Positions 7,440 to 11,262 of a stretch of 24,000 bases of DNA are shown piece by piece. Below the pieces are notes generated by a model. It was not told the DNA's origin. It saw only the letters and a program-made list of their open reading frames with translations, and searched no databases. This DNA comes from Kineococcus sp. SYSU DK006 (lineage in GTDB: Bacteria; Actinomycetota; Actinomycetes; Actinomycetales; Kineococcaceae), in NCBI RefSeq assembly GCF_050871885.1, contig NZ_JBJLSF010000018.1, positions 4,677 through 28,676 on the forward strand. Direction: 5' to 3'. Every line of letters starts with the position of its first letter. Position 1 is the first letter of the stretch. The translations under genes and the position numbers were made by a program.

Positions 7440-8858
7440 GTGCGACGGGTGAGCACCAGCACCGCCCCGGCGCCGGGGATCTTCTCCCGCCACCACCTGC
7501 GCACCACCGTCGGCACGACGGCCCTGGTCTTCCTGACCGCCTTCGAGAGCCTGGCCGTCACGACGGTCATGCCGATCGTCAGCGCCGACCTCGACGGCCG
7601 CGGCGCGTACGCCACCGCGTTCTCGGCCACGCTCGCCGCGAGCGTGCTGGGGATGGTCGTCGCCGGCGGCTGGGCGGACCGGCGCGGGCCGGCGCGCCCG
7701 CTGCTGGCCGCCGTCGCCACCTTCGGCCTCGGCCTGCTGGCCGCCTCCCTGGCCCCGACGATGGGGGCCTTCGTCGCCGCGCGGTTCCTGCAGGGGCTGG
7801 GCGCGGGCGGGATCAGCGTGACGCTGTACGTCGTCGTCGCCCTCGTCTACCCGCCGCCGCTGCGCCCGGCGGTGTTCGGGGTGTTCGCCTCGGCGTGGGT
7901 GCTGCCCTCGCTCGTCGGGCCGCCGCTGGCGGGGCTGGTCGCCGAGTCGATCGGCTGGCCCTGGGTGTTCTCCGGCGTGCTGGTGCTCGTCCTCGCGGCC
8001 GCCGCGCTCGTGCTGCCGACCGTCCTGCGCATCCCGGCGCCCGCCGCCCCCGCGCGGGCGGGCTCGCCGGGCACCCGGTTCGCGCTGGCCGCCGGGGTCG
8101 CCGTCGCGGTCGTGGGCCTCAGCTCGGCGGGCAGCACCGGCCCGGCGCGCTGGGCGGTGGCCGCGCTCGCGCTCGCCGTGCTGGTGGTGTGCGTGCGGCC
8201 GCTGCTGCCGCGCGGGACCCTGAGCGCGCAGCACGGGATGCCCGCGACCGTGGCGCTGCGCGGCCTGCTCGCCGCGACGTTCTACAGCACCGAGGTGTAC
8301 CTGCCGCTGATGCTGCACGAGCGCTTCGGGGTGCCGGTGTGGGGGGCCGGGGTCGTGCTCACCGCCGCCGCGGTCTCCTGGGCCTCCGCCTCGGCGGTGC
8401 AGGGGCGGCTGGGCCACCGCCTCCCGCACGCGCTGGCCGTGCGCATCGGCACCGTGGCGCTGCTGGCCGGGGTGCTCGTCCAGGTCGCGACCGCGGTGCT
8501 GTCCCCGGCCGGGGCGGCGGGCCCGGCGGCCGCGGCCGCCGGCTGGTTCGTGGCCGGCCTGGGCATGGGGTTCGCCTTCCCGCGCACCACCGTCCTCGTC
8601 CTGGAGCTGTCCCCCGCCGGCGCCGAGGGGGCCGGGTCGGCCGCGCTGAACACCTCCGACGCGGCGGGCGGCGCGACCGCGCTGGCGCTCACCGGGCTGC
8701 TGTTCGGCGCGTTCTCGACGCTGTCGGGGTGGGCGGCGTTCGCCGGGACGCTGCCGCTGTGCGCGCTGCTGGCGGTGCTGGCGCTCCTGGTCGCCCGGCG
8801 GGTGCGCCTGCCCGCGGCGCACGGGGTGGCCGCGCCGGTCTCACAGGGCACGCACTGA
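7440..8858 (+). CDS. MFS transporter (probable 14-TM efflux type)
   Basis: The protein is multi-spanning and hydrophobic. It carries the MFS motif A-like GGWADRRGPARPLL after TM2. Length 472 aa. GTG start lies 25 nt after the LysR stop. Confidence 0.85.
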   Translation: MRRVSTSTAPAPGIFSRHHLRTTVGTTALVFLTAFESLAVTTVMPIVSADLDGRGAYATAFSATLAASVLGMVVAGGWADRRGPARPLLAAVATFGLGLLAASLAPTMGAFVAARFLQGLGAGGISVTLYVVVALVYPPPLRPAVFGVFASAWVLPSLVGPPLAGLVAESIGWPWVFSGVLVLVLAAAALVLPTVLRIPAPAAPARAGSPGTRFALAAGVAVAVVGLSSAGSTGPARWAVAALALAVLVVCVRPLLPRGTLSAQHGMPATVALRGLLAATFYSTEVYLPLMLHERFGVPVWGAGVVLTAAAVSWASASAVQGRLGHRLPHALAVRIGTVALLAGVLVQVATAVLSPAGAAGPAAAAAGWFVAGLGMGFAFPRTTVLVLELSPAGAEGAGSAALNTSDAAGGATALALTGLLFGAFSTLSGWAAFAGTLPLCALLAVLALLVARRVRLPAAHGVAAPVSQGTH

Positions 8859-8901: not shown

Positions 8902-9870
8902 ATGAGGAGCTCCCGCGACACCCGCCCCCGCTACGAGGGCCGCCCGCTGCCGCGCCCGCACGAGGACGTGGAGGACCAGGGCCTCGCCTTCGACATCGCC
9001 ACGATCACCAGCCGCCGCGGCGCGCTGCGCGCCCTCGGCCTCGGCGCGGTGGCCGCCGGCCTGACCGCCTGCGCCAGCACCGCCGAGGCCGGCTCGGCGA
9101 GCGGCACCACCAGCTCGGCGGGCGCCGGCGGCGCGCTCACCGAGATCCCCGACGAGACCGCCGGCCCCTACCCCGGCGACGGCTCCAACGGCGCGGACGT
9201 GCTGGAGCAGAGCGGTGTCGTGCGCAGCGACATCCGCTCCAGCTTCGGCACCTCCACCACCACCGCCGAGGGCGTGCCGATGACGCTCACGCTCTCGATC
9301 GTCGACATGGCCGGCGGGGACGTGCCCTTCGAGGGCGTCGCCGTCTACGTGTGGCACTGCGACCGCGCCGGGCGGTACTCGATGTACTCCGAGGACATCG
9401 CCGGCGAGAACTACCTGCGCGGGGTGCAGGTCGCCGACGCCGACGGGAACGTGAGCTTCACGAGCGTCTTCCCCGCCTGCTACGACGGCCGCTGGCCGCA
9501 CGTGCACTTCGAGGTCTACCCCGACGTGGACTCCACCACCGACGTCGCGAACTGCATCGCCACCTCCCAGCTGGCGATCCCGGCCGAGGCCGCCGCCGCC
9601 GTCTACGCCACCGCCGGCTACGAGCGGTCCGTCACCAACCTCGCGGAGGTCTCGCTCAGCAGCGACGGCGTCTTCGGCGACGACGGCGGCGCCACCCAGA
9701 CGCCCACGTGGTCCGGCGACGTCACCAGCGGCTACGCGCTGGCCCTCACCGTGGGCGTGGACACCACGACCACGCCCACGGCCGGGACGATGGCCGGGAT
9801 GGGCTCGGACTCCTCCGGCCACCCCGCCGGCGGCCCGCCGCCCGCGGGGGCGGGTCCCGCCCCCGCCTGA
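8902..9870 (+). CDS. intradiol ring-cleavage dioxygenase-like protein with Tat signal and lipobox (exported lipoprotein)
   Basis: Twin-arginine motif SRRGALRAL is followed by GLGAVAAGLTAC (lipobox L-T-A-C). The core ETAGPYPGDGSNG...VYVWHCDRAGRYS...YLRGVQVADADGNVSFTSVFPACYDGRWPHVHFEV matches the intradiol dioxygenase fold signature (Y..GR.PHIH.). The tail is Thr/Pro/Gly-rich. Confidence 0.8.
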   Translation: MRSSRDTRPRYEGRPLPRPHEDVEDQGLAFDIATITSRRGALRALGLGAVAAGLTACASTAEAGSASGTTSSAGAGGALTEIPDETAGPYPGDGSNGADVLEQSGVVRSDIRSSFGTSTTTAEGVPMTLTLSIVDMAGGDVPFEGVAVYVWHCDRAGRYSMYSEDIAGENYLRGVQVADADGNVSFTSVFPACYDGRWPHVHFEVYPDVDSTTDVANCIATSQLAIPAEAAAAVYATAGYERSVTNLAEVSLSSDGVFGDDGGATQTPTWSGDVTSGYALALTVGVDTTTTPTAGTMAGMGSDSSGHPAGGPPPAGAGPAPA

Positions 9871-9882
9871 GCGGGAGGGCCC

Positions 9883-10746
9883 TCAGCGGCGCGGGGGTGC
9901 CGCCCGCCGGGCCCGCCGGGCGGCCGGCAGCAGCGTCAGCGCCGCCTGCTGGGCCGCCGACCAGGCGGCGGAGACCGCCCAGTAGAGCAGCACCCCGACG
10001 GGGAAGTGCACGGCCGAGACCGCCACCACCACCGGGAGCACGACCTGCACGGCCGCCTGCCCGGGCACCGGCTCGGCGCCCCGGGCGGCCTGCTGCGCCG
10101 CCGACAGCCGCAGCACCAGCAGCTGCAGCAGCGCGCTCGCGGCCACGAGCAGGCCGGCGACGAGGACGGTCCGCGGGTCCGCGCCCCACGCGGCGGTCAG
10201 CGAGCCCGACAGCGGCGCACCGGCGAGCGTGGCGGCGCCCAGCTGCTCCAGCGGCGCACCCGAGAGCGGACCGACCGGGCGGGCGGCGGCCACCGCCTGC
10301 AGCGTGAGCGTGAGCGCGAGGAGCACCGGGGCCTGCAGCAGCCCCGGCAGGCAGCCGGCGAGCGGGCTGGTGCCCGCTCCCCGGTACAGCTCGGCCGTCC
10401 GCTGCTGCAGCTCGCGGCGGGCGGCGGGGTCGGTGCGCCCGCCGTAGCGGCGCTGCAGCGCCAGCAGCTGCGGGCGCAGCGCCGCGACGGTGGCCGCGGC
10501 GCGCTGCTGGCGCACGAACAGCGGCAGCAGCAGCGTGCGGGCGAGGACGACGAGGCCGACGACGGCCAGCGACCAGGCCGCTCCCCCGGCCGGGTCGAGA
10601 CCGGCGGCGGTCAGCAGCCCGTGCAGGAGGACCAGCACGTGGGCGACGGCCGCCTCGGCCGGCGCGAGGACGGCGTGGCCGAGGTCGAGCAGGGACGAGA
10701 GCAGGGACGAGGACGGCGACGAGGGCAGGGACGAGGGCAGGGGCAC
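9883..10746 (-). CDS. yidC: YidC/Oxa1-family membrane protein insertase, short paralog
   Basis: LLPLFVRQQRAAATVAALRPQLLALQRRYGGRTDPAARRELQQRTAELYRGAGTSPLAGCLPGLLQAPVLLAL matches the conserved 60-kDa-IMP core (..KQ..s...m..lqP.....kY......el..LY...g.nPl.GCLP.l.Q.Pi..al). LLYWAVSAAWSAAQQ lies near the C-terminus. GTG at 10746 is preceded by GGAG (10756-10753) with a 6-nt spacer. The N-terminal 20 residues are a Ser/Leu/Pro low-complexity stretch, so the exact start is uncertain. Confidence 0.8.
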   Translation of the reverse strand: MPLPSSLPSSPSSSLLSSLLDLGHAVLAPAEAAVAHVLVLLHGLLTAAGLDPAGGAAWSLAVVGLVVLARTLLLPLFVRQQRAAATVAALRPQLLALQRRYGGRTDPAARRELQQRTAELYRGAGTSPLAGCLPGLLQAPVLLALTLTLQAVAAARPVGPLSGAPLEQLGAATLAGAPLSGSLTAAWGADPRTVLVAGLLVAASALLQLLVLRLSAAQQAARGAEPVPGQAAVQVVLPVVVAVSAVHFPVGVLLYWAVSAAWSAAQQAALTLLPAARRARRAAPPRR

Positions 10747-10748
10747 GG

Positions 10749-10898
10749 CGGACTCCGGGATCGCGGGAACGGGGAGCGGCAGCTCCCGCGTCCGGTGCGG
10801 GGTCCTCGGGGCCGGGGTTCGAGCCGGGGTTCGAGCCGGGGTTCGAGCCGGGGTTCAGGCCGTGGACGCCGCGGGGCGCGGGAGCGGCGGCGCTCCCG
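10749..10898 (-). promoter_or_regulatory. candidate translational switch: duplicated, mutually exclusive GC stems linking the 3' end of the small ORF to the yidC SD
   Basis: All sequences below are read on the mRNA (minus) strand.
- CGGGAGC (10898-10892) pairs with GCTCCCG (10885-10879).
- A second CGGGAGC (10788-10782) lies inside CGCGGGAGC. It can pair with GCTCCC (10777-10772).
- As CGCGGGA (10790-10784) it pairs instead with TCCCGCG (10768-10762).
- CGGAC (10794-10790) is complementary to GTCCG (10753-10749), which lies between the SD and the GTG.
- GCTCCCG (10885-10879) is also perfectly complementary to the second CGGGAGC. Confidence 0.3.
10811..10858. repeat. 12-bp tandem repeat, three perfect copies plus one 10/12 copy
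   Basis: gccggggttcga occurs at 10811-10822, 10823-10834 and 10835-10846. A variant gccggggttcag follows at 10847-10858. The last copy contains the stop codon (10855-10857) of the small ORF. Confidence 0.9.
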
Positions 10899-11205
10899 GT
10901 GCCCGCGGCTGCGGGTTGCCCACGGCCGCCGGTTCGTTCTGCGGCAGCACCTCCGCGCGCACCCGCGACCGCCGCGGCGGTGCGGGGGCGATCGCGGTGA
11001 GCAGGACGGCGACGACGGCGCGGACGGCGACGACGCTGAGCAGGCAGGTGGCGGCGACGCCGAGCGCCGCGGCCAGCAGGGGGGTGTGGGCGCCGGCGGG
11101 CGGGACGACCGCCAGGGCCGTCAGCAGGGCCGTCAGCAGCGCCGGCACGAGCAGCAGCGCGGCGGAACCCCGCTCCGTCAGCGACGGGCGCGCGTGCGGC
11201 ACCAT
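10855..11205 (-). CDS. small two-TM membrane protein with Pro-rich C-terminal tail containing R-A-P-G; candidate ApcA/MifM-like regulatory nascent peptide for the downstream YidC paralog (possibly the DUF6412 family seen next to actinobacterial yidC paralogs)
   Basis: The ATG at 11205 is preceded by GGGGGAGGAGGG (11221-11210). Hydrophobic stretches span about residues 15-34 and 43-72, with a short PPAGAHTP loop between them. A basic PPRRSRVR cluster follows, and the tail reads ...NPQPRAPGAPPLPRPAASTA. TGA stop at 10855-10857. I recognise no enzymatic motif. Confidence 0.6.
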   Translation of the reverse strand: MVPHARPSLTERGSAALLLVPALLTALLTALAVVPPAGAHTPLLAAALGVAATCLLSVVAVRAVVAVLLTAIAPAPPRRSRVRAEVLPQNEPAAVGNPQPRAPGAPPLPRPAASTA

Positions 11206-11236
11206 CCGGCCCTCCTCCCCCTGCGGAACGAGCCTA

Positions 11237-11258
11237 GCGCCCGGTGGTGCCCGGGCGC
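11237..11258 (-). terminator. strong hairpin immediately after deoA (terminator or processing-site candidate)
   Basis: Perfect 8-bp GC stem: gcgcccgg (11237-11244) and ccgggcgc (11251-11258), with a 6-nt loop. It starts 5 nt after the deoA stop. On the mRNA strand the moderately U-containing UAGGCUCGUUCC follows. Confidence 0.45.
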
Positions 11259-11262
11259 CGCG

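Follow-up and report, generated by a model that had tools for sequence, protein, structure and literature searches.

What is encoded by the small, "hypothetical" open reading frame (ORF) that precedes a YidC-type insertase gene in Kineococcus sp. SYSU DK006, and how might it act on its neighbour? We addressed this question in a stretch of 24,000 nucleotides (nt) of the genome, hereafter the window. The upstream ORF (uORF) has 116 codons on the minus strand (11205..10855; ATG at 11205, stop codon 10857-10855) and is followed on the same strand by yidC2 (10746..9883), which encodes a YidC/Oxa1-family insertase paralog of 287 amino acids (aa). An earlier note on this DNA had proposed an arrest-peptide uORF of the ApcA kind for the yidC paralog, and both homology and a conserved pairing with yidC support that proposal. 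Our data indicate that the uORF very probably encodes a divergent orthologue of ApcA (DUF6412) that would arrest by the insertion-sensing mechanism proposed below. Published work has described ApcA as an arrest peptide whose gene precedes yidC2 in actinobacteria (Sakiyama et al. 2021 NAR, PMC7897499; Fujiwara et al. 2024 Nat Commun, PMC10987492). About 1,590 Actinobacteriota homologues have been catalogued (PMC7897499, PMC10987492), and arrest in the family has experimental support (PMC7897499, PMC10987492, PMC12992588). The uORF-yidC2 system is a case of this already described family. Because ApcA upstream of yidC2 has been published, the finding is a rediscovery, and what is new is limited to a conserved helix that the mRNA can form beside the arrest site. 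The ORF at 11205..10855 should be annotated as an ApcA-family (DUF6412) arrest-peptide uORF of yidC2.

The uORF has the properties of a translated gene. GC content at codon positions 1, 2 and 3 is 0.85, 0.63 and 0.95, a pattern identical to that of yidC2 and of the upstream gene deoA (thymidine phosphorylase), so the ORF is coding in its frame. A Shine-Dalgarno (SD)-like run, GGGGGAGGAGGG (11221-11210, minus strand), lies 4-8 nt 5' of the ATG. All coordinates given earlier for the ORF, its SD and its position 108 nt before yidC2 were correct. Hydropathy analysis placed hydrophobic segments at residues 15-34/36 and 43-73/74, with the loop PPAGAHTP between them and the cluster PPRRSRVR followed by a Pro-rich tail after the second, in agreement with the helical hairpin previously described. 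Basic residues at the N-terminus and after the second transmembrane segment (TM2) suggest that the hairpin would be oriented N-in/C-in. At 116 aa, of which residues 74-116 (43 aa) form the hydrophilic C-terminal part, the product has the layout of ApcA proteins, which are small (80-200 aa) and have two TM segments and 40 or more hydrophilic residues at the C-terminal end.

Homology searches, which the earlier note had recommended against ApcA and DUF6412, connected the uORF to this family. The Pfam DUF6412 model (PF19950) matched residues 82-107 in the correct register with 16.3 bits, and BLASTP against Rhodococcus ApcA gave an E-value of 2e-6. A sequence search with the uORF protein returned one 95 %-identical metagenomic protein and Kineococcus-type proteins at 51-68 % identity, the latter with divergent TM regions and tails reading TLPQNEPAAVGNPQPRAPGA. 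One of the Kineococcus orthologues carries the NCBI name "DUF6412 domain-containing protein". Loci of yidC paralogs in Oerskovia and Xylanimonas likewise contain uORFs, with the C-terminal sequence PGRPQPRAPGAxxLP. A profile built from this Kineococcus/Oerskovia/Xylanimonas branch (hereafter the clade) reached PF19950-annotated proteins of Rhodococcus, Herbiconiux and Xylanimonas (E 1e-16 to 1e-4), and hhalign aligned it to 20 canonical members with a probability of 97.7 % (E 1.6e-12). The 90 % cluster of the best Rhodococcus match includes a 108-aa protein of R. erythropolis PR4. Its C-terminus, DDERCLRGAFRRQSSPDAPGRPQPRAPGIGL, matches all published ApcA residue numbers (D78, L83, G85, F87, R88, S92, R98, P101, R102-A103-P104 and G105).

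Conservation is concentrated at the arrest site. In an alignment of 17 sequences, 25-60 % identical, the sole invariant columns were P92, G96, P98, P100, R101, A102, P103 and G104, which define a core P92-x3-G96-N97-P98-Q99-P100-R101-A102-P103-G104 (10932..10894, minus strand). RAPG and the flanking Pro and Gly residues are thus invariant in a variable rest, as the earlier note had asked of its proposal. Across 197 family members, RAPG occurs in 189, the preceding Pro (P101) in 194, the Gly in 186 and the distal Pro in 183. The codons of the core vary synonymously between loci (Arg CGG/AGG/CGA/CGC; Ala GCA/GCG; Pro CCG/CCA), which argues that selection acts on the peptide. The tetrapeptide alone is not significant, since translating the window in six frames yields 36 instances of RAP[G/P]. 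The earlier caveat about a chance four-residue match was therefore justified, and significance comes from conservation in homologues.

The ribosome arrested on ApcA has Pro104 in its P site, and its A site is occupied by Gly105 (PMC7897499). Transferring the toeprint and Northern data for R. erythropolis ApcA (ReApcA; PMC7897499) by alignment, we predict that the ribosome stalls with its P site on the Pro103 codon (10899-10897, minus strand) and its A site on the Gly104 codon, GGA (10896-10894). The codons of R101-A102-P103-G104 were correctly located at 10905-10894, with 12 codons after Gly104, but Pro103 lies 29-30 residues past the end of the second hydrophobic stretch, not 32.

Synteny and geometry were also maintained. 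A YidC gene lies directly downstream of the uORF in the window and in 15/15 relatives with readable context, and the co-oriented pair was seen in Kineococcus, Oerskovia, Xylanimonas, Rhodococcus and Herbiconiux. In K. radiotolerans the locus is syntenic with the window (deoA ... uORF-yidC-dioxygenase-major facilitator superfamily (MFS) transporter). The primary yidC genes of relatives are located after yidD, unlike yidC2; a scan of genome contigs with YidC2 returned mostly these, such that 3 of 12 loci were informative. The start of TM2 lies 60 residues before the arrest Pro in the window, close to the family median of 63 (sd 2.5, n=148). In contrast, counted from where the hydrophobic stretch ends, the distance takes two typical values (about 44 or about 26-31 residues), because the second segment of this clade is 31 residues long. 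The stretch between TM2 and the arrest domain has turned hydrophobic in this clade. Thus the idea of a set TM2-motif spacing holds when counted from the TM2 start (60-63 residues), but the previously proposed spacing of about 30 residues from the hydrophobic end is not the conserved quantity. Family-wide (P0001-P0201), the second hydrophobic segment is bimodal in length, at about 20 or about 31 residues, and the TM2-start distance is constant.

These features suggest how the system may work. The two N-terminal hydrophobic segments would insert as an N-in/C-in hairpin, aided by YidC. The sequence ...P92-A-A-V-G96-N-P-Q-P-R-A-P103/G104 would arrest the ribosome while its P site holds peptidyl-Pro103-tRNA and its A site Gly104-tRNA (GGA), a step that we infer from the homologous R. 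erythropolis protein. As TM2, whose first residue is 60 positions ahead of Pro103, enters the membrane, it would pull on the nascent chain and release the arrest. Since pulling force would release it, arrest duration would become a readout of insertase capacity; this readout, the YidC-dependent release and the feedback on yidC2 are all modelled on MifM. In this clade, arrest would influence yidC2 expression by a route other than simple unmasking of the yidC2 SD by the stalled ribosome. The most likely transducer would be a conserved four-segment mRNA element, with segment 1 within the stalled ribosome and segment 2 paired with the spacer.

Several observations weigh against an arresting ApcA orthologue that controls yidC2. 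The uORF score of 16.3 bits falls below the PF19950 gathering cut-off of 26.9, although this threshold is the operational cut-off of a 30-column model and no biological criterion. Clade relatives score 14.7-21.3 bits, all in the correct register and below the cut-off, so that the Pfam model misses the whole Kineococcus/Oerskovia branch of the ApcA family. More directly, Asn97 stands at the position of ReApcA Arg98, and the R98A substitution largely abolished ReApcA arrest (PMC7897499). Asn at this position was found in 11/197 members, nearly all of the Kineococcus-type branch. Alanine scanning of ReApcA identified R98, P99, Q100, R102, A103 and P104 as needed for arrest, together with the distal residues L83, G85, F87 and R88 (PMC7897499). 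The window protein keeps P99, Q100, R102, A103, P104 and G105 and replaces the distal residues with V82, A84, V86 and L87, thereby differing at 5 of about 10 arrest-relevant positions. These distal positions are variable across the family. RAPG is also a weak core, dependent on ApcA's own upstream tunnel contacts (PMC12992588), and arrest has been shown only for the Rhodococcus protein, with B. subtilis ribosomes (PMC7897499). The tail of 12 residues after the Gly is unusual, as the family mode is 6. Because the weak core leans on upstream contacts, arrest by the window variant is likely but not certain from its sequence. The natural Arg98-to-Asn variant offers a testable handle on ApcA arrest.

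The proposed output meets further objections. The authors of the ApcA study noted that feedback on yidC2 was undemonstrated and did not find an SD-sequestering hairpin (PMC7897499); in the literature searched, no later paper demonstrates ApcA feedback on yidC2. We modelled SD unmasking with a 27-nt ribosome footprint slid along the uORF, with truncation models and with SD unpaired probabilities. In the window, a footprint at the stall left the cost of opening the yidC2 ribosome-binding site (RBS) unlowered, changing it from 7.9 to 9.0 kcal/mol, and the truncation model gave a change from 5.0 to 8.7 kcal/mol.

How, then, might arrest reach yidC2? The mRNA around the arrest site contains four mutually complementary segments of SD-like or anti-SD-like sequence (all on the minus strand), present in 13/13 loci of the "GAxxLP-tail" clade, the Kineococcus/Oerskovia/Xylanimonas branch from which our RNA alignment of related sequences was drawn. 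Segment 1 (GGGAGCG, 10897-10891) starts at the last nt of the P-site codon. Segment 2 (CGCUCCCGCG, 10886-10877) is complementary to segments 1 and 3; its helix strand GCUCCCGCG (10877..10885) spans +14..+22 from the first nt of the P-site codon and forms the 5' strand of a GC-rich long-range helix. The 3' strand is segment 3 (CGCGGGAGC, 10790-10782), which is located in the spacer some 40 nt before yidC2 and is an exact reverse complement of GCUCCCGCG. Segment 4 (GCUCCC, 10777-10772) is followed 15 nt downstream by the yidC2 SD. Pairing of segments 1 and 2 yields hairpin hp1 (GGGAGCG-CCGC-CGCUCCC, 10880..10897; folding energy -13.7 kcal/mol), which likewise starts at the last nt of the P-site codon. 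A second hairpin in the spacer, hp2 (GGGAGC-UGCC-GCUCCC, 10772..10787), has a 5' arm overlapped by segment 3 and an anti-SD-like 3' arm, and is present in most of the 13 loci with variable loops. No Rfam family matched at E ≤ 1.

The long-range helix showed the clearest signs of conservation as RNA. In 12/13 loci, segments 2 and 3 formed a stronger duplex than those obtained after dinucleotide shuffling of the spacer (p ≤ 0.037). The partner of segment 2 lies 47-53 nt from the yidC2 start in 11/13 loci, even though spacer length varies between 51 and 128 nt; in the other two, where an extended alternative duplex was chosen, it lies up to 69 nt away. In the alignment, the 10-bp helix was 93 % paired, compared with 36-67 % when the register was slid. 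At pair 22:35, 8 loci have C:G and the other 5 U:A without exception, the switch occurring in both sub-clades, and a single change to A:U is seen at pair 23:34. None of 500 shuffles scored as high for covariation as the alignment itself. The codon at the covarying segment 2 position encodes Arg, Cys, Leu or His; because this residue varies, the peptide is not what is conserved there. A duplex search of the Rhodococcus and Herbiconiux ApcA loci found no such helix. Hairpin hp1 was 92 % paired in the 13 loci and showed no covariation across them, and hence may merely reflect the conserved G-A-x-x-L-P peptide.

These pairings suggest an attenuator-like switch. Without arrest, pairs 1:2 and 3:4 (or 1:4 and 2:3) would form. 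Segment 2 begins at +14 from the P-site codon, exactly where a ribosome halted on Pro103 would have its leading edge, so that arrest would bury segment 1, keep helix 2:3 as the only one able to form, and free segment 4. This would change transcriptional read-through into yidC2, the fate of the mRNA or access to the yidC2 SD. We regard such a switch as a tentative candidate, our confidence in it falling clearly short of even. In its favour are the 1:2, 2:3 and 3:4 complementarity throughout the clade, the 2:3 covariation at a position of varying encoded residue, and the near-fixed distance of the partner from the yidC2 start. Against it, only two pairs covary, in sequences that are related to each other, hp2 lacks a U-tract and hence is no canonical terminator, the element is absent from the Rhodococcus and Herbiconiux loci, and hp1 is possibly a peptide by-product. 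Moreover, the predicted pairing of segment 4 with the SD is found in only about 6/13 loci and implies repression of yidC2 upon arrest, the opposite of what homeostasis would require.

For the 2:3 element in itself, a functional role of any kind seems about as tentative, or slightly more doubtful. We consider it somewhat unlikely, on present data, that a conserved mRNA device reads out or reinforces arrest in the Kineococcus/Oerskovia/Xylanimonas branch; no RAPP-like arrest peptide has been described with such a device. Its part could be that of the missing link from ApcA arrest to yidC2, or of an mRNA roadblock compensating for an arrest peptide weakened by Asn97 and the altered distal residues. 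A covarying helix adjoining the arrest site might bear on how ApcA arrest couples to yidC2 and is another testable handle. In 12/13 clade loci, and in Rhodococcus too, Gly in the A site is encoded by GGA, a rare codon ending in A, in genomes whose third codon positions are about 95 % GC (GC3). RNA pairing (hp1/hp2) could account for this preference, as could selection in favour of a particular or slow tRNA-Gly where the ribosome arrests.

An output of the MifM/SecM type, in which a ribosome stalled at Pro103 melts an SD-sequestering stem and switches yidC2 translation on, is improbable in this clade. In the unconstrained fold, the region of the arrest site does pair with a stretch that stops 5 nt short of the yidC2 SD (z = -2.96). 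However, the SD itself lies outside this long helix, consistent with the absence of a sequestering hairpin reported by the ApcA authors (PMC7897499), and a stall-site footprint lowered the RBS opening cost in none of the window and 12 clade relatives. As three tests showed no consistent opening on arrest, we rejected SD unmasking for this clade. A different picture emerged from Herbiconiux solani, whose ApcA locus (L022, 2800-2915) has the classical MifM-like design. There, an anti-SD, CCUCCUGACG, 6-15 nt past the P-site codon and inside the footprint, pairs with the yidC2 SD CGUCAGGAG, and the predicted RBS opening cost fell from 11.2 to 5.4 kcal/mol when the footprint was removed from folding. 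Since this locus opens its RBS on a modelled stall and the window clade does not, different ApcA loci seem to use different output solutions. The Herbiconiux locus, with its classical anti-SD within the footprint, provides a further testable handle.

Could the small protein instead be a structural or accessory membrane partner of YidC2, its Pro/Arg/Gly tail serving as a protein-interaction motif without arrest? Asn97 in place of the arrest-important Arg98 and the altered distal residues would fit such a role. Yet the conserved block coincides residue by residue with the mapped ReApcA arrest core, the conserved positions are limited to the ~15 residues that precede the A-site Gly, and the TM2 distance is fixed, as expected of a force sensor. 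We therefore judge an accessory partner to be very improbable. A chance ORF with a chance RAPG in a GC-rich, Pro/Ala/Arg/Gly-rich frame, for which the frequency of the tetrapeptide in the six frames might speak, has a negligible probability and is refuted by the GC3 signature of 0.95, the homologues with an invariant motif, the synonymous codon variation and the yidC synteny.

An arresting ApcA orthologue thus remains our reading of the uORF, and its surroundings add some detail. The downstream gene is identified as yidC2 by matches to PF02096 (1.4e-32) and TIGR03592 (8e-37). It starts with GTG at 10746, preceded at 6 nt by the SD GGAG (10753..10756, minus strand), and the SD context cgcgatccc(c)ggagt is homologous in K. 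radiotolerans. The 108-nt spacer between the uORF stop and this start (10747..10854, minus strand) is C-rich and G-poor (C 54, G 31), its C-skew of 0.27 ranking in the top 1.2 % of 108-nt windows on the same strand. The base bias resembles a Rho-utilisation (rut) site, and C exceeds G in most relatives' spacers too. A tnaC-like blocking of a Rho site was rejected as speculation, as the stalled ribosome, ~40 nt upstream of the C-rich spacer, would not cover it.

Directly 3' of the uORF stop, Tandem Repeats Finder (TRF) detected a perfect 12-nt tandem repeat of 3.8 copies (ACCCCGGCUCGA on the mRNA; 10811..10856, minus strand; 100 % matches). In the 95 %-identical metagenomic relative (L014) this repeat is essentially single-copy, with a spacer of 90 nt as against 108 nt, which indicates a recent, strain-variable expansion. 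The locus holds three in-frame 12-nt repeat arrays inside ~500 nt, in TM1, the spacer and the yidC2 start. That in TM1 (11113-11144, 2.7 copies) encodes ALLT-ALLT-AL. That in yidC2 (10689-10742, 4.5 copies) covers the first ~18 codons and encodes a low-complexity N-terminal extension, PLPSSLPSSPSSSLLSSLL. The same stretch is extremely C-rich and G-poor (C-skew 0.46) and rut-like. K. radiotolerans YidC2 (233 aa) has no such extension, its SD and start context being homologous nonetheless.

Upstream, the deoA stop codon (11265-11263) is separated from the uORF ATG by 57 nt (11206-11262). A 9-bp GC hairpin (11259-11236, minus strand) follows the deoA stop, as noted before, but it has no T-run and was not scored as the terminator that would close the deoA operon. 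A scan found no sigma-70-like promoters and no intrinsic terminators, and neither hp2 nor the post-deoA hairpin, both without T-runs, was retained as a candidate terminator. Since the gap is only 57 nt, the hairpin lacks a T-run and no sigma-70-like promoter is present, the uORF and yidC2 may share a transcript with deoA in the window. In K. radiotolerans, intervening genes separate deoA from the uORF, and the gene preceding the uORF is divergent. Convergent to yidC2 are genes for a Dioxygenase_C-domain protein (8902-9870, plus strand) and an MFS transporter (7440-8858, plus strand), neighbours common to K. radiotolerans and Kineococcus sp. SYSU DK001, in support of a Kineococcaceae-like origin for the window.

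Comparison with known systems places the locus more precisely. CliM of Clostridia (PMC13183943) is also an arrest-peptide uORF of yidC and was shown to monitor YidC activity, but its sequence and phylum are unrelated and the arrest mechanisms differ. MifM of B. subtilis, which monitors SpoIIIJ/YidC2, shares the small membrane uORF upstream of yidC2, the short fixed TM-to-arrest spacer and the proposed release by force. However, MifM has no sequence homology to the uORF product, arrests through an acidic cluster at multiple sites, and melts an SD-sequestering stem by stalling, where no such melting is predicted in the window. ApdA, ApdP, SecM and the RQH family of RAPP-like arrest peptides resemble the uORF in an R-A-P-(G/P) or R-A-G-P core that blocks peptidyl transfer with its third residue in the P site. 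They differ in lying upstream of secDF or secA, in having signal peptides and long variable spacers, and in stronger RAPP/RGPP cores that need little upstream context. The trp and ermC leaders share four consecutive complementary RNA segments, of which segment 1 is covered when the ribosome stalls within the leader peptide, and 2:3 as the alternative helix. All three pairings of this type (1:2, 2:3 and 3:4) were found in the clade, with covariation supporting 2:3 only. Unlike in those leaders, segment 4 of the window holds neither an SD nor a U-tract terminator, and the predicted stall would depend on the nascent chain and force rather than on an amino acid or drug. From ApcA of R. erythropolis, the window protein departs in its score below the Pfam cut-off, in Asn97 for Arg98 and V/A/V/L for L83/G85/F87/R88, in a second hydrophobic segment of 31 rather than ~20 residues, in a tail of 12 rather than 3-6 residues after the Gly, and in the mRNA helix next to the arrest site of its clade, which Rhodococcus lacks. 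With ApcA it shares the small two-TM protein encoded upstream of yidC2 on the same strand, the invariant P-x3-G-x-P-Q-P-R-A-P-G near the C-terminus, the TM2-to-arrest geometry and GGA for the A-site Gly.

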